This document shows positions 1,708 through 20,141 of a stretch of DNA of 64,000 nucleotides, in pieces. Source of the stretch: Myxococcota bacterium (GTDB lineage Bacteria > Myxococcota_A > Polyangia > Nannocystales > Nannocystaceae); contig JBCCHT010000006.1 in NCBI GenBank assembly GCA_039028615.1, forward strand, positions 240,985 to 304,984. The letters are read 5' to 3'. The position numbers and the translations under genes are program-made. Within the stretch, counting starts at the first letter, position 1. Each line of letters opens with the position of its first letter. The notes under the pieces are model-generated. The model made no database searches, had not been told where the DNA came from, and saw nothing but the letters and a program-made list of their open reading frames with translations.

Positions 1708-4700
1708 CTAGAGCGCTTCCGCGAACGCTCGCGCGAACTCCATCGGGTAGGGTCGATCGGCGGGGTTCATGGCCGTCGCCGCGCGCAGCAGCTTGGCGAC
1801 CTCGGTCGGGTAGACCCGCAGCGGGCTGTCGTCCTCGAAGGGGTCGCGCTGCATGTGGGCGAGGATGCGATCGCGGTAGTTCTCGACGTCCTCGAAGAAC
1901 GAGCGCCCGGTGGTGACGTTGAAGATGGTCCCCGCCAGCGCGTAGACGTCGGCGCGCGGGTCGAGCTCGACGGGATCGAGCACCTGCTCGGGAGCGATAT
2001 AGCCCACGGTGCCCGCCACGAAGCGGCCGCCGACATCGGGCGCGACCTTGGCCGCCCGCACCATGCCGAAGTCGATGACCACCGTGGACAGCGGCGCGGC
2101 CACGGCTGGGTCGCGGTGCTTGGCCGGGTCGAAGCGCTCACCGCCTTGCAGCGGCAGCCGCAGCCACAGGTTGGCCGGCTTGATGTCGCGATGGATGAGC
2201 CCCGCGGTGTGCAGCGCCGACAGCCCCGCGCAGGTGTCGAGCACCACCTTGCGCAGCTCGAATAGCGACATCTTGCGCGCCGCCGCGTACTGCTTGAGGT
2301 CGGCCCCGATGAGGTACTCGAGCACGAGATAGGGGGAGCCGTTGGAGACCCCGCGATCGATGATGTTGGCGACGTTGGGGTGATAAAGGCCCGCCAGCGC
2401 GGCCGCCTCTTCCACGAACGAAGCCAAGATGCCCTCGCGTTCGAAGTCCGAGGCGGCCTCGAGCGCCTCGACCTTGGGGATCTTGAGCACGAAGAGCCGA
2501 TCGGCGCCGGGCTTGCGGACGAGCCACACCGTGCCCACGCCGCCTTCGCCGAGCGACTTGACCAGCTCGTACCCCTCGATGACGGTGATCTCTTTTTTCG
2601 CCTTGGGCGGGGGCGGAGGCGTACGCGAGATGGCGCCGCGAATCGCCGCATCGACCAGGGCCGAGACCACCGGGCCGAGCGAGGCCAGCCACACCTCGAC
2701 GATGGAGGGATCGCGGGCGGAGATGGCCCGCGCCACCAAGCTGGCGACACGCGGCGCGTTGGGGGCCGCGTCGCGGGTCAACGAGTCCGGCATCTCGCCG
2801 CCGGGCTCGGCCGTGTGCAGCGCCTTGACGGGGTCGGCCAGGGCACGGACCAGGCGATCGGAGGCGAGCACCAGCTCGACGCACAGCCCCTCGAGGCCCG
2901 CGCTTCGCCCCACCGCCCCGGAGAAGCCTCCGATGGCGCGCGACAGGCCCACCAAGGCCTGCGCGAGCTCGGTCTCGGCGGCGTGCAACGAGTGCAACGC
3001 GGCCTCGGCTTGCAGGATCCAGTCGGGATTGGCCGCCCCCGCCGACACGGCCGTGCGCAGCACCTCGGCCCGATCGCAGCACGAGGCCAGCGCATCGTCG
3101 TCGACCATGGGCAGCGCGTTGGCCAGTCGCCGCAGCACGGCGGGGCGATCGACGACCAGCGCCCACCAAGCGGCAAAGGGCCCCAGCCACTCTTCGTCGT
3201 CGTCATCGATGCCGCGGGTCGTGCCGCGGGTGGTGTCGACCAGCCGCCAGAACACGTCGCTGAGCGCTCGCTCGAGCACGGGCGGGAAGGTCCGCGAGCC
3301 ATCGGACAGCCCCTCGAGCTTACGGAGCCACCGACAGGTGTGGTGCGCCGTCTTGCCGTCGGTGCGATGGTCGGTGGTGCAGGGGTTGGACCCCGCGTCG
3401 AGGGCATAGCCGCCGAGGGTCAGCGCCAGTACTTCGAGCGGAACGTCGACGTGCAGCTCGGCTCCGTCGTCGCGCCGACGCTGCCGTACGACCTCGAGGA
3501 TCTCGGCCGGCATCTGCAAGATGGCCGTGCGGGCGTCCTCGGGCTGCTGCACCTCGACCGCCTCGCCGCGGGGGTTGGTGGCCAACAGCGGCGCCCACAG
3601 CCCGAGCGCGAAGGCCCGCGTACAGGCGACCAACGAGTTCATGGCGGCGGCGCGATGCCGCGGCCGGTCGGTGCTCATCGAGATGCGATGGGTCTCGACG
3701 ATCGCGGGGCCGAGCGCGGCGGCGAAACGAGCCGCCCGGGCGTCCGCCTCCTCGTCGTCGTACTGCGCCGCGATGCGCACCAGGTTGTCCATGCCGCGCT
3801 CGAGATCCAGCGGGTCGCGCTCGGCTCCGTCGAGCACGTCGGTGATCGCGATGACCTCGATCCAGCCTCGCAGGTCCTCGGGGCTCGACGAGGGCGGGAA
3901 GCGAGCGATGTCGCGAAGCGCCCGCAGCGGGCTCGCCACGGGGTCGTTGGTGTTGCCGCCCCGCCACAGCGCCGCCAGACCGCGGGCCAACGAAGCCGCC
4001 GCCAGCGGGCCGCCGTCGCCGTCGAGGATGCGCGTGCACAGCCGCGTCCAGATGTCGTTGCGCTCGTGGAACAGATACGGCGTGGCCGCGGCCGCGGCCG
4101 CCAGGACCCAGGGATCTTCGTCGGGCGACGACACGATGGCGCGCAGCTGCCCCGCCATGAACCCCAGGCGCTCGGCGGGCACCGAGGCCAGCGCGGTGAT
4201 GGCCCGCTGCCGCAGCACCTTGGTCTCGCCGTTGACCCAGTCGAGCAGCATGCCTTGGAGCTGCTCCATCGGCCCGAGCAAGCGCCCGAGCGCCCGAGCG
4301 GCGTGCACCCAGACCATCGGCTCGGGATGCAGCAACAGGGGCTGGAGGGCGGCGAGCGTGGGCGCGAGCGGATCGCTCGGGCCCGACGTGGGCATGCCGC
4401 TCACGCTGATCTCCAGCCCGCGCGCCGCGAGCACGCGTCCCCGCAGCGAGCCGAAGGCCGGGCGCGAGATCATCGTGTCGAAGGTCGACGGCGAGCCCCA
4501 CATCCACGGGCCGAGCTCCGGCACATGCAGCGCGGTGGCCCCGGCCTCCCACACCAGGATCTCGAGCCGGGCACGAACTTGGGCGTGCTCGTCCCGGTCG
4601 ATCTGCGCTCCGTCGCCGAAGAGCGGAGCGCACCGCAGCGCATCGAGCAACGGCCCGGCCACCACGCGATCGCCTGCCGCCGCGGCGACCCGCGGCGCCA

Positions 4701-5022
4701 GCTCGGGGTGCTCGGCCGCCCGCTCGAGCAAGGGCGCGATGCGAGGCTGAGCCCGCCATGCGCTCGCCGAGCACCACGCCAAGATCGTCGACCCGCCCGG
4801 CCCGGCCAAAAGCGGCAGTAGGCCCGCAATGCCATCGTCGGTCTGACTCCGCTCGGGGATCTGTTGCGACAACACCGTCGCCGCCTTGGCCAGGTCACCG
4901 CTCAGCGCTCCCGGGCGCGGCGATGCGGTACGCCACCACGCGCGCACCTCCTCTTCGAGCTGGGGCGAACGAGTGACCGCCTCGGTCAGGGTTTCTACGG
5001 CCGTTTCGAGCTCGCCCACCAT
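1708..5022 (-). CDS. Hanks-type Ser/Thr protein kinase with C-terminal kinase domain and long helical N-terminal region
   Basis: GEGGVGTV, VLKIPK, HRDIKPAN, DFG, GTVGYIAPEQ and DVYALA in the last ~290 aa; N-terminal ~800 aa is Ala/Leu-rich and HEAT-like (HAARALGRL, QRAITALASV). Confidence 0.9.
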   Translation of the reverse strand: MVGELETAVETLTEAVTRSPQLEEEVRAWWRTASPRPGALSGDLAKAATVLSQQIPERSQTDDGIAGLLPLLAGPGGSTILAWCSASAWRAQPRIAPLLERAAEHPELAPRVAAAAGDRVVAGPLLDALRCAPLFGDGAQIDRDEHAQVRARLEILVWEAGATALHVPELGPWMWGSPSTFDTMISRPAFGSLRGRVLAARGLEISVSGMPTSGPSDPLAPTLAALQPLLLHPEPMVWVHAARALGRLLGPMEQLQGMLLDWVNGETKVLRQRAITALASVPAERLGFMAGQLRAIVSSPDEDPWVLAAAAAATPYLFHERNDIWTRLCTRILDGDGGPLAAASLARGLAALWRGGNTNDPVASPLRALRDIARFPPSSSPEDLRGWIEVIAITDVLDGAERDPLDLERGMDNLVRIAAQYDDEEADARAARFAAALGPAIVETHRISMSTDRPRHRAAAMNSLVACTRAFALGLWAPLLATNPRGEAVEVQQPEDARTAILQMPAEILEVVRQRRRDDGAELHVDVPLEVLALTLGGYALDAGSNPCTTDHRTDGKTAHHTCRWLRKLEGLSDGSRTFPPVLERALSDVFWRLVDTTRGTTRGIDDDDEEWLGPFAAWWALVVDRPAVLRRLANALPMVDDDALASCCDRAEVLRTAVSAGAANPDWILQAEAALHSLHAAETELAQALVGLSRAIGGFSGAVGRSAGLEGLCVELVLASDRLVRALADPVKALHTAEPGGEMPDSLTRDAAPNAPRVASLVARAISARDPSIVEVWLASLGPVVSALVDAAIRGAISRTPPPPPKAKKEITVIEGYELVKSLGEGGVGTVWLVRKPGADRLFVLKIPKVEALEAASDFEREGILASFVEEAAALAGLYHPNVANIIDRGVSNGSPYLVLEYLIGADLKQYAAARKMSLFELRKVVLDTCAGLSALHTAGLIHRDIKPANLWLRLPLQGGERFDPAKHRDPAVAAPLSTVVIDFGMVRAAKVAPDVGGRFVAGTVGYIAPEQVLDPVELDPRADVYALAGTIFNVTTGRSFFEDVENYRDRILAHMQRDPFEDDSPLRVYPTEVAKLLRAATAMNPADRPYPMEFARAFAEAL

Positions 5023-5058: not shown

Positions 5059-7656
5059 TCAGCCGACGATGGCCCGCAACCGGAGTAAGGGCTCGTCGAC
5101 CGCATCGGGCTCGCGCAGGTCGACCTCCGCCTGCACGCGCCACGGCGAGGGCCCTTGGGGGCCCACCAGCGTGTGCTCGACCGACCACCGTCGCTCGCCC
5201 GCCGACTCGATCTTGGTCAGCGCAGGGGCCCGGGCCTCGGCCCCGAAATGCAGCGTTCCTTCTTCCTCGAACACCGGTTCCAGCGCTTTTTCGAGGCGCT
5301 CCACCGTCCACGCGTCGTCGGGATCGACGGCCAGACCGACCAGCGCTTCTTCGTGGTCGCCCATCGCCATCGCCTTGGCCACCGCGTGCAGCTCGGCGCG
5401 AACGCGGGCCGTCAACGCCTTTTTGTCCTTGGCCAGGTCGTAGGGCTCGGGCTCGGCCTCTTCTTCCACCTCGGCGTCCGACTCGCCGGGCTCCGGGCCG
5501 CCCTTCAAGATCCGCTCCCACTCGCTGACCAGGCTCGAGTCCACCCGCGCGAGCATGGCCCGCAAGAACGCGATCACGTCCTCGACCTCTTGGTTGTGAT
5601 AACTGACGGGGACGTTCTGCAGCAGGGTCTTGTAGGTCTGGCTCAGGTAGCGCAGCAGCACGCCTTCGATACGGCCGAGCCCGTACTCCTTGACGTACTC
5701 GTTGAAGCTGGCGAAGCGCTCCTGCATGTCGCGGGCGACCGACTTGGGGGCGACGTTCTCGCCCCGTACCCACGGGTGCCCGGTCCGAAACTCGTCGAAG
5801 GTCCGATAGATGAGGTCGGCCAGCGGCTTGGGGTAGTCCGCCTTCTCGAGCTCGGTCATGCGGTCTTCGTACTCGACGCCTTCTTGCTTGAGGCGCGCCA
5901 CGAGCTCGCCCTTGACGTAGTCGAGCTGGCGCATGAGCACCGCCCGCGGGTTCTCGAGGATCGACTCGACCAGGCTGAGCACGTCGAGCCCGAAGCCCTC
6001 CGACTCGGCGTCGAGCTGCGCCAGCGCCTCGAGCAGGTACAGCGACAGCGTGTGGTGGAGCGAGAAGTCGCGCTGCAGGCCCGGGCTCACCCGCACGCAG
6101 CGTCGCGGCCAGCCCTCGGGGCGCTCGACCTCGATGATCTCGGCCTCCCGCAGGTGTCGAAACAGCATCGCCGCCTGTCGACGATGCCGCTTGCGGGCCC
6201 CCGAGCGCTCGTAGGACCGCCCGATGATCTCGATGATCGTCTTGTACCCGCCGTGGGGCTGATCGACGTTGAACTCGCGATCGAGCACCGTCATCAGCAT
6301 GCCGTGCGTGACCGAGAACCGGGACTCGAGCGCCTCCGGGTCGGACTCGATCAGCTTTTGGAAGGTGTGCTCGTCCCAGGGCACGTAGCCGCGCTCGGGC
6401 GGCTTCTTTCGCACGAAGCGCTTCTTGTTGCCCTTGCCCGCCGCCGCCTTGGCCTCGAGCTTCTTGTTCTCGATGACGTGCTCGGGCGCCTGAGCCAGCA
6501 CCCAGCCGTGATCGTCGAAGCCCTTGCGACCGGCTCGACCCGCGATCTGCTTGAAGTCCCGCACCGCCAAGATGCGCACCTTCTCGCCGTCGAACTTGCA
6601 CAGCTTGGTGAACAGCACGGAGCGAATGGGCACGTTGACGCCCACGCCGAGCGTGTCGGTGCCCGAGATGATCTTGAGCAATCCCTGCTGCGACAGGCGC
6701 TCGACCAAGGTGCGGTACTTGGGCAGCAGGCCCGCGTGGTGCAGGCCGATCCCGTGGTGGAGGAAGCGCTTGATGTCCTTGCCGTAGTGGGTATCGAAGC
6801 GAAAGTTGCCGATCACCTTGGCGATCGCCCGCTTCTCTTCCTTGGTGCACAGGTTCACGCTGGTGAGGTTCTGCGCCTGCTCGGCCGCCTCGCGCTGGGT
6901 GAAGTTCACCACGTACACGGGGGCTCGACCGGCTGCGGCCAAGTCCCCGATGGTCTCGTGGAGCGGCGTCTCGCGGTACTCGAACTCGAGCGGCACCGGG
7001 CGCTGGCGCGAGCGCACCACCGTGACCGGCTTGCCCGTGAACGCCTCGATCTGCCGTTCGAACTCCCCGACGTTGCCCAGCGTCGCCGACATCAACAAGA
7101 AGGTCGCGTGAGGCATGGTCAATAGCGGCAGCTGCCACGCCATGCCCCGATCTGCGTCGCTGTAGTAGTGGAACTCATCCATCACCACGATGTCGGTCGA
7201 GGTGTACGCCCCGTCGCGGAGGGCCTGGTTCGCCAAAATCTCGGCGGTGCAGCACTGCACGGGCGCGCGCGGGTTGATCGACGCGTCACCCGTCATCATT
7301 CCGACGTTTTGCGCCCCGAGCTGTCGGCACAAGTCGAAGAACTTCTCGCTCACCAGCGCCTTGATGGGGCTGGTGTAGGCGCTGCGCTTGCCTTGGCACA
7401 GCGCCTTGAAGTGCAGCGCCAGGGCGACCATCGACTTGCCCGACCCGGTCGGAGTGGCGAGCACCAAGTGCTGCCCGCCCATGAGCTCCAAGATCGCCTC
7501 TTCCTGGGCGTCATAAAGGTCGATCCCCCGCTGGCCTACCCACTCGAGGAAGCGCTCGAGGATTTCGTCTCCGTCGAGCGTGCCTTCGGTCGGGAGGTAC
7601 TGCTCGAGGGTGGCTGCGTCAGCGGAGGGCGGCACAGGGGGCTGAGCGTATCTCAC
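5059..7656 (-). CDS. Ski2-like DEAD/DEAH-box helicase (DUF3516-type C-terminus)
   Basis: [39 protein letters not shown] and QIAGRAGR helicase motifs; exact start uncertain. Confidence 0.9.
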
Positions 7657-7735
7657 AACCCCGCGACGTCGTCATCCGCGAGCCCCCCCGGACTCGCGGA
7701 AGCACCACGGAATTGACGTTGCCTTCGAAAAGGGA

Positions 7736-7980
7736 CTGGGCCCGTCTCGGGGGAGAGACGAGCCCAGGTGGGGATTGAGCCTCGCGTCGGGGGAGATACG
7801 AGGTCTCTTCGGGGATGGCCTCCGAACTCGGGGGAGAGGGAGGAGGCCGGGGTCGAACTCGGGAACCGGGGAGAACCCGAGTCGGACGAAGTGGGGAAGA
7901 CTTGGGGTCGGGCGGCTCACGCGCCCCGGAGGGGAACCGGGGGCGGGGGAAGTAGGGGAAGGCGGAGCCTGCCCGACCCC
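7736..7980. ncRNA. Candidate structured RNA: tandem hairpins with recurring GGGGA (+) / UCCCC (-) motif
   Basis: Hairpins at 7736-7767, 7777-7807, 7817-7848, 7857-7882 and 7889-7903, plus a stem 7904-7918/7965-7980; ten GGGGA motifs, mostly in loops and linkers. Confidence 0.55.
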
Positions 7981-7986
7981 GGCGGA

Positions 7987-8865
7987 CTACTCGAGGTCGT
8001 ACTGCTTGAGCTTGCGGTACAGAGTGGTCTTGCCGATGTGCAGCAGTCGAGCGGCCTTGCGCTTGTTGCCGCGGGCGTAGCTCAGCGCGCGACGGATGGC
8101 TTGCTTCTCGGCCTCTTCGAGGCAGAGCTGACGCTCGGGCGACTCGGCGCGAGTCTGGTGCACGTCGCGAACGCGAAGCTTGGCCGGAAGGTCGCGAAGC
8201 TCGATCTGCTCCGACGCACCGGCTGCGATGGCGTGGACCATGACCTCTTCGAGCTCGTCGACGTTGCCGGGCCAGGGGTAGCTGCGCAGGCAGTCGAGGG
8301 CGTTGTCGGCGATGCCACCGATGGGGCGTCGGGTGGGCGTGCGCCGGATGATGTCCATGGCCAGCAGCTCGAGGTCTTCGATGCGCTCGGCCAAGGTCGG
8401 CACGTCGATGCGAACTCCGCTGGCCCAGCGAACGATCTGCGGGTGAAGGCGGTTGCGGCCTTCCTCGCTCTCGGGGCGAAGCTGAGTGCCGATGACGATG
8501 CGGCCGAGGCCGGTCAGCGCGGGAAGGCGAGCTTGCTCTTCGAGGGGGAGGTCTTCGAGATCGCCGAGGTAGGTGAACCCACCGAGACCAACGAGGCGCG
8601 ACTGCTGGTCGCAGGCGCGGATGACCTCGAGCGCGGGGGACTCACCTCCACTAAAGTGGTGAAGGACCCGGGCGATGGTCTCTCGACCGGTGCCCGTGGC
8701 TCCGACCAACAAAACAGGGAGGTTGCTCCGAACGGCGCGATGCACCAACGCCTGCACACGGCGAGACGCAGGCGCGTGGCCTACGAACACCGGAGGCGGA
8801 GTACGAATCCGCGCCTCGGCAATGTTGTCGGAGAACGATGGGGAGAAATGATCGGCGATTTGCAT
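7987..8865 (-). CDS. Degenerate sigma54-activator-like regulator with C-terminal Fis HTH
   Basis: PVLLVGATGTGRE, YPWPGNVDEL and RGNKRKAARLLHIGKTTLYRKLKQY; no GAFTGA loop and no receiver domain. Start chosen at MQIADH. Confidence 0.85.
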   Translation of the reverse strand: MQIADHFSPSFSDNIAEARIRTPPPVFVGHAPASRRVQALVHRAVRSNLPVLLVGATGTGRETIARVLHHFSGGESPALEVIRACDQQSRLVGLGGFTYLGDLEDLPLEEQARLPALTGLGRIVIGTQLRPESEEGRNRLHPQIVRWASGVRIDVPTLAERIEDLELLAMDIIRRTPTRRPIGGIADNALDCLRSYPWPGNVDELEEVMVHAIAAGASEQIELRDLPAKLRVRDVHQTRAESPERQLCLEEAEKQAIRRALSYARGNKRKAARLLHIGKTTLYRKLKQYDLE

Positions 8866-9230
8866 CGGGGGCTTCCGCTCTCGCGAGGGGTTTCCTGCAA
8901 CCGGCATGCGAGATGCCACTAGGAACGCCGAAGATCCGTATTTTCAACGATTTGCCGGCGATGCGCGACTTTGTCTAGTGTCAAAGTAGTGTTTACCCTT
9001 AGTAAAACCGTCATGATGATGGCGGCTTGGGCCACCAACGACCACCCAAGGCCCAATGTCGGACAAAAAATCGTCAGGGGTTTGGCACCCGAGTTCCCGT
9101 TCGAGCCACGGGACTCTGACGGTCCGCTTTCGGATCGAGATCGTCCCGCATTGAGATCCCGACCACGCGGCTGGCGCCGGCACGGATCGATCGCTTGCGC
9201 CAGGAGCAGGGACCCGGCAAAAGGTGCGTC

Positions 9231-10079
9231 ATGTCGAAGGCCGACGAAGCCGAGCTGAGCACTTTGCGCACCCGCGTCAATGCCGCGTGGGAAGACCGAG
9301 CCTTGCTCGAGGACGACGATCACCGAGCCGCTGTGCGACGGACGATCGCCCTGCTCGACGCCGGCTCGATCCGGGTCGCGTCCCCTCCCGCCGAAGACGG
9401 TGGCGACTGGGCGGTGCACATCTGGATCAAGCAGGCGATCGTTCTCTACTTCATTACTCAGAAGCTGCGGACCGATAACGTCGGCCCCTTCGAGTACTAC
9501 GACAAGATCCCGCTGGGACGAGACTGGGCGCAAGCCGGCGTCCGCGTGGTGCCTCCCGCGACGGCGCGGTATGGCGCGTTCATCGAGTCGGGCTGCGTGC
9601 TCATGCCCAGCTACGTCAACGTCGGTGCCTATATTGGTACGGGCACGATGGTCGACACCTGGGCCACGGTGGGCAGCTGCGCCCAGATCGGTCGCAACGT
9701 GCACCTGTCGGGCGGCGTGGGCATCGGTGGTGTGCTCGAGCCCCCCGGAGCCACCCCGGTCATCATCGAGGACGGCTGTTTCGTGGGCTCCCGCGCCATC
9801 GTGGTCGAGGGCGTCCGCCTCGAGCGTGAGGTGGTCCTCGGCGCCAACGTCGTCATCACCGCGTCCACGCCCATCATCGACGTCACTGGCGAGGAGCCGG
9901 TGACGTACAAGGGCCGAGTGCCCGCGCGAAGCGTGGTCATCCCGGGCACCCGACCCAAGAAGTTCCCCGCGGGGGAGTACCAGGTTGCCTGCGCCCTCAT
10001 CATCGGACGACGCAAAGAGAGCACCGATCAGCGCACCAGCCTCAACGATGCGCTGCGGACCTTCGACGTCCAGGTGTAG
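9231..10079 (+). CDS. dapD: 2,3,4,5-tetrahydropyridine-2,6-dicarboxylate N-succinyltransferase
   Basis: YDKIPL, RVVPPATARYGA, MPSYVNVGAY, MVDTWATVGSCAQIG and HLSGGVGIGGVLEP. Confidence 0.95.
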   Translation: MSKADEAELSTLRTRVNAAWEDRALLEDDDHRAAVRRTIALLDAGSIRVASPPAEDGGDWAVHIWIKQAIVLYFITQKLRTDNVGPFEYYDKIPLGRDWAQAGVRVVPPATARYGAFIESGCVLMPSYVNVGAYIGTGTMVDTWATVGSCAQIGRNVHLSGGVGIGGVLEPPGATPVIIEDGCFVGSRAIVVEGVRLEREVVLGANVVITASTPIIDVTGEEPVTYKGRVPARSVVIPGTRPKKFPAGEYQVACALIIGRRKESTDQRTSLNDALRTFDVQV

Positions 10080-12184: not shown

Positions 12185-12826
12185 ATGAAGAAACTACTGT
12201 CTGTTTCGTGTCTGATGACCATCCTCTTGCCGCTGACGATGGCGAGCGGATGCGATTTCGAGTTCCCGCATCCCGATCTCCCTGGCGGGGACACGGGAGA
12301 ACGAGGCGGTGACGAAGCTGGCGAGGGCGGCGACCTCGAAGCATGTGATGCGGTGTTCGAGGCCTGCCTGGACGAAGGCGCCGACGAAGAAGCGTGTGTC
12401 GAGGTTCTCGAGGCCTGCTGGGACGAGGGCGGTGCCGAAGCCAACGGCGGTGGCGAGGAGCCCCCGATCGACGCGTGCGCGGGGGAGTTCGAGCTGTGCC
12501 TGGAAGAGGGTCACCCGATCGAGCTGTGCGAGGAGATCCTCGACGCATGCGACCCCGACGGCGAAGGCGAGTGCGAGGACCCCGACGGTGACGGCGAGGG
12601 CGAGCCCGACGGCGAGGACCCGGGAGGCGAGGAACCGGACGGGGAGGAGCCCGATGGCGAGGGCGAGCCCGATGGCGAAGACCCGGGAGGCGAGGAACCG
12701 GGCGGTGAGGAGCCCGATGGCGGACCCGCAAGCGAGCACTGCGTAGAGGAACTCGTCGCCTGTCTCGAGGCGGGCGAGCCCGCGTGGGTCTGCGAAGAGC
12801 TGCTCGAGGCCTGCGAACCGATGTAG
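12185..12826 (+). CDS. Acidic Cys-rich lipoprotein with three CX6CX9CX6C modules
   Basis: Signal peptide ending ASGC, AAGGAA RBS, three repeated Cys modules, own terminator. Confidence 0.8.
   Translation: MKKLLSVSCLMTILLPLTMASGCDFEFPHPDLPGGDTGERGGDEAGEGGDLEACDAVFEACLDEGADEEACVEVLEACWDEGGAEANGGGEEPPIDACAGEFELCLEEGHPIELCEEILDACDPDGEGECEDPDGDGEGEPDGEDPGGEEPDGEEPDGEGEPDGEDPGGEEPGGEEPDGGPASEHCVEELVACLEAGEPAWVCEELLEACEPM
12593..12718 (+). repeat. Two near-identical 63-bp in-frame tandem repeats (GEGEPDGEDPGGEEP[D/G]GEEPD)
   Basis: Copies start at 12593 and 12656. Confidence 0.85.
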
Positions 12827-19628: not shown

Positions 19629-20141
19629 ATGGCTCCACAGGAGCGCGAAGAAAGCAACGTCGAGAGCCTGATGGGCCAGTTTCGGGCCTACCTCACGAAG
19701 AAAGGCCTCAAGTCCACCCGGCAGCGCGACATCATCGCCGAGAGTTTCTTCTCTCATTCGGGTCACCTCAGTATCGAGGACTTGTTGGCGCTGGCTCGCA
19801 ACGACTACCCGCGCCTGGGCTACGCCACCGTCTATCGCACGCTGAAGCTGCTGACGGAGTGTGGCCTCGCCGCGGAGCGCCGTTTTGGCGAAGGGCAGAC
19901 GACCTACGAGGCGGCGGGTGATCTGGAGCACCACGATCACCTCATCTGCCTCGAGTGCAACCACGTGCTCGAATTCCACAACGAGGAAATCGAGCGCGAG
20001 CAGGAGCGAGTGGCGCGGAGCTTCGGCTTCACCGTCATCCGCCACCGCCACGAGCTGTACGGGTTGTGCCCACGCGCCCGCGGGATCAAGGGCGGCTCCT
20101 GCCCCGGCGACGAAGCCCGCGCCGCCAAAGAGCGCGACTAG
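19629..20141 (+). CDS. fur: Fur family transcriptional regulator
   Basis: GLKSTRQR, HLSIEDL, ATVYRTLKLL, HHDHLICLEC and HELYGLC. Confidence 0.9.
   Translation: MAPQEREESNVESLMGQFRAYLTKKGLKSTRQRDIIAESFFSHSGHLSIEDLLALARNDYPRLGYATVYRTLKLLTECGLAAERRFGEGQTTYEAAGDLEHHDHLICLECNHVLEFHNEEIEREQERVARSFGFTVIRHRHELYGLCPRARGIKGGSCPGDEARAAKERD

Follow-up and report, generated by a model that had tools for sequence, protein, structure and literature searches.

The array at 7736 to 7980 is, judged by its sequence and that of its relatives, a real, selected and previously undescribed RNA element of the multi-hairpin, C-loop regulator kind. It lies in the window (the whole 64,000-nt stretch of DNA analysed here, from genome G000) and is no free-standing intergenic gene: it begins 6 nt past the stop codon of its host gene and fills the 3' UTR. 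It is probably a new regulatory RNA that pairs with G-rich mRNAs. A base-pairing regulator is favoured because the feature under selection is the exposed C runs, and because the design matches that of the cuckoo and 6C RNAs, which pair through their loops. The best single explanation, which is advanced tentatively, is a 3'-UTR-derived, Hfq-independent base-pairing RNA that grew by duplication of a terminator hairpin. No prior description of the array or of Nannocystaceae small RNAs was found in the open-licence literature, in which Pxr was the only characterised myxobacterial sRNA work found.

The array and its predicted fold

On the - strand a long stem domain comes first and four hairpins follow it, the last of them terminator-like; runs of C4-5 occupy both loops and linkers. 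Its parts, 5' to 3' on that strand, are:

7904..7980, - strand: D1, long 5' stem with three exposed C runs inside (folds; kept in congeners G004 and G002)
7888..7903, - strand: linker, single-stranded or weakly paired, with one C4 run (unpaired probability 0.99)
7852..7887, - strand: hairpin H1, C4 loop (fold)
7817..7848, - strand: hairpin H2, C5 loop (fold)
7808..7816, - strand: linker with AUCCCC (same linker motif in G004)
7777..7807, - strand: hairpin H3, C5 loop (fold)
7768..7776, - strand: linker with AUCCCC (same linker motif in G004)
7736..7767, - strand: hairpin H4, terminator-like, 13 bp with a C5 loop (homologous by position to the lone terminator found in most orthologues)
7728..7735, - strand: short pyrimidine/U tail after H4 (absent in G004)

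The hairpins, apex motif, linkers and tail described in the sequence-only reading were all recovered, with folds at 7736-7767, 7777-7807, 7817-7848, 7852-7887 and 7904-7980. The apex TCGGGGGAGA occurs exactly three times in the 64,000-nt window (at 7747, 7787 and 7828), against a chance expectation of 0.36 +/- 0.59 copies per window, and three copies were reached in one of 100 shuffles. The ten copies of GGGGA (UCCCC on the - strand) were likewise confirmed, and at 10 per 250 nt they form the densest cluster of the 12.3-Mb genome, the runner-up locus having 7. With 13 C4+ runs the array ranks first among 2036 gene 3' flanks of G000, which are generally without C skew. It is present as a single copy in G000 by blastn and by two models, so it is not REP/BIME-like, the mark of such elements being many genomic copies, and no tandem repeat was called at the array at a score of 30. 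Two details were revised. The mini-hairpin at 7889-7903 is weak, being present in the MFE structure and open in the centroid, and the outer stems are not unrelated as had been claimed: three of the four hairpins have a common CUCG...CGAG/CGGG core, also seen in a congener, and the units therefore look like diverged duplicates.

The array folds stably on both strands, with z-scores of -6.9 to -8.2 on the - strand and -3.3 to -3.6 on the + strand of G000, a gap that is in part an effect of composition; the sense values are -5.3 (G004) and -4.8 (G002), and the antisense values -3.3 and -1.5, respectively. Folding strength of this order is not unique, as 8 and 14 of 244 sampled 3' flanks (from 1472) match the two focal 200-nt windows, whose folding is in the top 3-6% of the sample. 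The C runs of the - strand are predicted to be open in all three species, those C4+ runs with an unpaired probability above 0.75 numbering 11 of 13 in G000, 9 of 12 in G004 and 6 of 6 in G002, and the + strand of G004 refolds. The initial, weak preference for the - strand is thereby supported: the only terminator-like site at the array, the conserved fold and the one-sided changes in H4 (below) are all on it. An internal promoter was looked for at the array and none was found.

The host gene and its neighbourhood

Transcription would run on the - strand from the promoter of the host gene and end at H4. The features around the array are:

5059..7635, - strand: DEAD/DEAH helicase with DUF3516, start at 7635 or 7656, downstream
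7645..7650, - strand: possible -10 hexamer of a separate helicase promoter
7987..8865, - strand: host gene, 292-aa degenerate sigma54-activator-like protein (Pfam; alignments)
8896..9121, - strand: conserved region upstream of the host gene (kept in 6/6 congeners)
8896-8911: GCAYG-N4-YYGCA element upstream of the host gene, sigma54-promoter-like minus the first G
9009-9023 and 9072-9086: two GCCA-N6-TGACG units upstream of the host gene
9117-9121: CGTCA upstream of the host gene
9231..10079, + strand: dapD-type succinyltransferase gene, divergent, a synteny marker

The host protein consists of an AAA+ remnant, a lid and a Fis-type HTH. Compared with a canonical activator of G000, the GAFTGA-loop region is deleted and the acidic pair of Walker B is lost; as a receiver domain is also missing, the protein is probably not an ATP-driven activator. 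It is restricted to the family and is 72-90% identical across several genera. Orthologues were present in 45 of 73 family genomes, none was found in 6 of the 17 genera, and 16 genomes of other families gave only weak matches to paralogues. Scans of the genome collection with this protein returned mostly unrelated activators among the matches listed. The GC3 of the gene is low (0.80), within the lowest 3% of genes.

The transcript that includes the array is probably driven by the conserved region at 8896..9121, whose 8896-8911 element resembles the sigma54 promoter consensus. The operator-like repeats between dapD and the regulator are possibly a site of autoregulation.

The helicase gene is a conserved neighbour and is not specific to the array. 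A similar -35/-10 spacing precedes it in 4 of 5 helicase-bearing congeners, 0 of 19 loci from other genera and 1 of 17 control windows, for a pattern that was picked after inspection. Between the terminator and this putative promoter there is a G7-run hairpin (7678-7701, - strand), which is not conserved in this form, and a G7 run precedes only 0.3% of genes; in a read-through RNA it could pair with the C loops of the array. Directly behind the helicase, 1708-5022 encodes a protein of 1104 aa that has a Ser/Thr kinase domain at its C-terminus and whose long N-terminal part is unannotated. Elsewhere in the window are a Fur-family regulator (19629-20141), for which a link to the array was not found, and an acidic Gly/Glu/Pro/Asp repeat tract (12551-12722) in a probable cysteine-rich exported protein.

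Distribution, selection and termination

The comparison covered 47 distinct 3' regions behind orthologues of the host gene. The full architecture (D1, four C-loop hairpins and AUCCCC-type linkers) is found in G000 and G004, and in G002 a partial array with D1 and C runs extends to the contig end. D1 plus C-loop units thus occur in 3 of the 6 species of the genus, and the model built on D1 (R2) matched in these three of the 73 family genomes only. The array is missing from the other 44 of the 47 regions, each of which has at most two UCCCC, and most of these carry a single terminator hairpin in the sense of the gene. Two carry small C-loop versions: G005 has three small C-loop units ahead of its terminator, and in G085, from another genus, the same gene is followed by an exact CCUCCUCCC loop, a linker containing a C run, and a terminator that has a C loop and a U tract. 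G001 has a long stem and a terminator without C loops. Trees of two genes did not resolve the order of G000, G004, G002 and G001, and the aconitase tree joins G001 with G002 (97/97); since G001 groups with a carrier yet is without C loops, either loss or repeated gain has happened. This, together with its absence from 44 of 47 regions, means that the module is dispensable or labile.

The module model R1 gave weak matches to the terminators of G001 and G005, and it found no second array in G000 or the 73 family genomes, where the best 60-150 candidates per genome were scored and weak copies could be missed. The 21 top other matches that were inspected are single terminators or coding DNA. A gapped C-motif pattern matched in 122 of 401 genomes, mostly at low-complexity tracts among the matches listed, and the conserved block had no viral match.

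Fourfold-degenerate sites of the host gene differ by 41-57% between congeners, so that neutral sequence would not stay recognisable at this distance. In D1, all three substitutions in the 3' arm of G002 are compensated by changes in their partners; one or two D1 pairs are also lost in each of G002 and G004. In H4, 8 of 11 pairs are the same in G000 and G004, two have changed on one side via G-U and one on both sides; both one-sided changes keep the pairing on the - strand only, and changes of this type point to RNA. Among the six modules, a double change is seen at 9 of 11 pairs, a level reached by 0 of 500 shuffles, in a test for which the structure was set by the author and the rows are related, and the covariation set consists of two complete sequences and one partial one. 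Taken together it is very probable that some RNA structure is under selection. The congener comparison also bears out the earlier claim that loops were kept while stems diverged.

The same changes bear on an element that would act as DNA, by a G-quadruplex on the + strand, an i-motif or cruciforms that affect transcription or supercoiling. G4Hunter maxima reach 2.0-2.4, and G000 and G004 each have one canonical G4 pattern, but the part available from G002 has none and, with G4 allowed in the folding, only G000 forms one. As the G-U-type changes keep pairing on one strand, which indicates RNA, we regard a DNA-level role as highly improbable. Neutral slippage, a dispersed repeat or a read-through extension of the protein is also very improbable. 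Unstructured C-rich tracts do occur elsewhere in intergenic DNA, and the frame past the host stop codon is open for 104 codons with the conserved block in frame in three species. The extension peptides are however unlike beyond a short block, changes within the block are mostly non-synonymous and the stop codon is TAG or TAA, and these readings also have to contend with the single copy, the lack of a tandem repeat at score 30 and the compensated stems. The single copy and compensated stems agree with the original proposal of a functional multivalent RNA that is neither a dispersed repeat nor a plain duplication.

Termination offers two further explanations. Sites of Rho utilisation are C-rich, G-poor single-stranded runs, and runs of this kind lie here downstream of a stop codon. 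No rho gene was however found in any of the 73 family genomes, of which 42 are 90% complete or better (the control matched 8 of 14), and no Rho RNA-binding domain in G000, so the Rho-loading reading fails and its probability is close to nil. A literature search on the absence of rho found nothing relevant. Given this absence, the lineage seems, from its gene content, to rely on intrinsic termination.

The other explanation is a tandem intrinsic terminator with a barrier to 3' exonucleases, in which the C loops would be left over from a duplicated C-loop terminator. In the available text of PMC3013805 a U-shaped (tandem) terminator is more than one hairpin less than 50 nt apart, and the array has this form behind the stop codon, termination itself being predicted. 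It would suit the start 6 nt after the stop, the position of H4 as the terminator, the lack of rho in the family, the weak or missing U tail in G000, G004 and G005, and a helicase that seemingly has its own promoter. It would however leave unexplained why C runs in the loops, in the linkers and inside D1 are kept across near-saturated neutral divergence. C tails are also poor release tracts. Only 8 of 300 U-tailed hairpins of G000 have a C4+ loop, and the rarity of C loops in ordinary terminators argues against a purely terminating role, which we consider unlikely. H4 may still terminate under the base-pairing reading.

Known RNAs, targets and mode of action

By membership tests the array is not a Pxr, cuckoo or 6C RNA, but it appears similarly built; across the whole window no Rfam family matched at the gathering level. 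Cuckoo RNAs, as far as the available text of PMC4615179 and PMC8034643 describes them, consist of neighbouring hairpins whose C-rich loop is constant and whose stems vary with compensation; they are cut out of the 3' UTR of a small regulator gene and end in a terminator. The Alphaproteobacterial cuckoo RNAs (CcsR/RSs0680, ar14 RF02344 and NfeR) are like the array in their adjacent hairpins, C loops, compensated stems, 3' UTR location and end terminator, and the four hairpins of the array are within the two to four with variable stems that are typical of the group. In contrast to these, its loops are mostly CUCUCCCCC-like rather than CCUCCUCCC, C runs are also present in the linkers and there is an extra long 5' domain; the host is a degenerate AAA+/Fis regulator in the Myxococcota, not DUF1127. 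Neither Hfq nor DUF1127, which in the CIN1 subgroup is encoded next to the RNA, was found in G000. CCUCCUCCC is not found in each loop: its only exact copy in the window is at 7838-7846, in the 5' arm of H2, and is largely predicted to be paired, and near copies are present in two loops of G004. H2-H4 of G004 align with the ar14 model over its full length at 22.1 bits (cut-off 58.8), and this model had no match in G000 and none above the cut-off in the 73 family genomes. The main text of PMC4615179 gave no match to 'Myxo' or 'deltaproteobacteria'.

The 6C RNA (RF01066, Actinobacteria) also has C-run loops and belongs to a high-GC organism without Hfq, and in the available text of PMC6486639 it pairs unaided with G-rich RBS regions. 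It has two hairpins with at least six C, whereas the array has four hairpins plus D1, with C4-5 runs, in a 3' UTR. It is the only Rfam family to match the array in G000 (H4 and tail, 22.5 bits, E 5.9), and as the cut-off is 47 the array is not a member.

Pxr of Myxococcus and its relatives is a myxobacterial multi-hairpin RNA downstream of a gene of the sigma54-activator family, and a link to it had been drawn in the sequence-only reading. According to the accessible parts of PMC5684412 and PMC5568312, Pxr is found only in the Cystobacterineae, where a spacer of about 260 nt separates it from pxrR/nla19 and a sigma54 promoter of its own drives it. The array, by contrast, follows its host stop codon by 6 nt, and the host encodes a degenerate protein that has no receiver domain, in a genome of Nannocystaceae type (compared also with PMC11928866, in part). 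The end of the host gene has no Pxr-type sigma54 promoter motif, no Rfam match pointed to Pxr, and no C-rich loop of Pxr turned up in the accessible portions of the Pxr literature. The link is therefore not retained, as there is no 260-nt promoter-bearing spacer and the upstream gene does not encode a receiver-domain response regulator.

CsrB and RsmZ repeat a motif over many hairpins and linkers as the array does, with the GGA of the array on the opposite strand. The consensus for CsrA sites is ANGGA. A CsrA sponge of this type, transcribed from the + strand, would draw on 18 GGA, of which 13 are predicted to be accessible in G000, and csrA is present in G000 and in 63 of 73 family genomes. 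The many accessible ANGGA on a conserved strand were however not found, there being only 2, 1 and 1 in G000, G004 and G002; in G004 only 4 of 11 GGA are accessible and the + strand refolds, and no + strand promoter or terminator was found at the array. The csrA gene of G000 adjoins fliW and has the N55 extension, which marks the FliW-controlled type in the available text of PMC13407953. G004 (88% complete) carries the array and has a clean deletion of csrA-fliW (G004:C23:647503-647626), the flanking genes being 123 bp apart on one contig compared with 792 bp in G000, so that array and csrA do not always occur together. With the GGA on the wrong strand and csrA-fliW lost from one array-bearing genome, the CsrA reading fails and is highly unlikely to be right. 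The original choice between a sponge and an anti-SD regulator is thus narrowed: the CsrB/RsmZ-type sponge falls away, and pairing of the anti-SD kind stays the best reading. In G000 the csrA-fliW pair stands behind a sigma54 activator (L031:1043-1655).

The Firmicute sRNAs RsaE, IsrR, FsrA and LhrC carry several UCCC sites in loops or single strands that act against SD regions. The array differs from such C-rich-motif sRNAs in that there is no sequence match and no enrichment of iron-protein targets. RNAIII also presents UCCC sites in loops or single strands against SD regions (PMC4615179, available text).

Candidate targets were sought at gene starts, which came from a simple caller of our own that adds noise. 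GGGAG is enriched at starts (118 vs 21). GGGGA is at 53 vs 29 only and the dominant SD words are AGGAG/GGAGG, so most loops of the array would be imperfect anti-SD sequences. GGGGGAG near starts was not enriched (67 vs 60 for the reversed motif; about 60 candidate leaders), and neither were Fe-S genes as targets (1 of 127 vs 64 of 8978, p 0.6). An iron-sparing role, suggested by aconitase, IlvD, ferredoxin and Rieske among the roughly 60 GGGGGAG leaders, was dropped as this unbiased test was null. G002 does not retain the IlvD site. For aconitase, the site reads GGGAG in four congeners that have C loops and CGGAG in two that lack them, which is too weak to use. Heme-motif genes had a lower duplex energy (p 0.003), which is confounded by their larger number of candidate starts. 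Self-pairing with the leader of the host gene was also considered; this leader is G-rich in G004 and G002 and not in G000. Pairing with the helicase leader, which has G5+ in G000 and G004, was rejected as the runs are in or before the putative helicase promoter. A possible family-wide pyrimidine-rich 3' seed was looked for as well: six genera are at 0.62-0.70 against 0.515 +/- 0.09, with genera g1, g14, g6 and g13 at 0.40-0.53. The assembly does not include the 3' end of the 16S rRNA.

Under the base-pairing reading, the terminator hairpin of the host gene would have been duplicated to give the array, and selection would hold the stems only as scaffolds, with the single-stranded C4-5 runs as the working part. 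The RNA may act from the full mRNA, or RNase E/G may free a stable piece of some 150-250 nt by cutting either behind the stop codon or within the 7888-7903 linker, a candidate endonuclease entry site. RNase E/G is present in 5 of 6 congeners, G000 among them. Cuckoo RNAs are processed by RNase E out of a stress-induced UTR, and CcsR is cut at ACUUC/CUCUUC (PMC8034643, available text). The loops and linkers would form G-C pairs with G-rich translation-initiation regions (GGGAG/GGGGAG) and so repress other mRNAs without Hfq, and some 11 exposed sites could provide avidity or serve several targets.

Alternatively the array could offer many binding sites to a protein that recognises C runs in single-stranded RNA, such as KhpA/KhpB or another factor, and would affect the stability of its own mRNA in cis or act as a sponge in trans. 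What stays invariant in the loops, and in the linkers too, is a run of C4-6 and less so any set anti-SD word; many identical sites are the signature of a sponge; no target enrichment was seen; and KhpA/B-family genes occur in 6 of 6 congeners, G000 included. They occur equally in congeners without the array, however, no C-specific partner was identified, DUF1127 was not found in G000, and the exact anti-SD loops of G004 and G085 suit base pairing better; we judge such a platform to be rather unlikely.

More speculatively, and with considerable doubt, the locus may be a new myxobacterial sRNA family at its birth, in which duplication of the terminator of an ATPase-dead sigma54-activator gene gave a C-run RNA with 11 sites that resembles cuckoo and 6C RNAs by convergence. 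Relatives would hold the intermediates (plain terminator, one or two C loops, mini-array and full array), and in a lineage that has neither Hfq nor Rho the gene and its RNA would together be a single regulator with two outputs, possibly via a C-run-binding protein. If confirmed, the element would show that the multi-hairpin C-loop design has arisen independently a third time, here where Hfq and Rho are both missing, and would provide rare natural intermediates for a 3'-UTR sRNA growing from a terminator. The array also draws attention to an uncharacterised and strongly conserved pseudo-activator gene. As it occurs in just 3 of the 6 species of a single genus, its general weight is limited.

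Other C-rich or repeated intergenic elements were seen during the scans. At G000:C3:131567-131614 and in 14 more blast matches there is a repeat of about 50 bp, dispersed and often next to unstructured C-rich tracts. In L227 (G070) an inverted repeat, nested and very long, lies in the first 330 nt past the orthologue stop codon and resembles a small mobile element. In genus g10, related intergenic elements (L343:1500-1625 in G087 and L348:1495-1615 in G084) have two CCUCC-rich stretches, a hairpin and a terminator. They match the ar14 model weakly (30.8 and 23.3 bits, respectively), with folds that disagree on how open the stretches are, and are a candidate second C-rich RNA at another locus.
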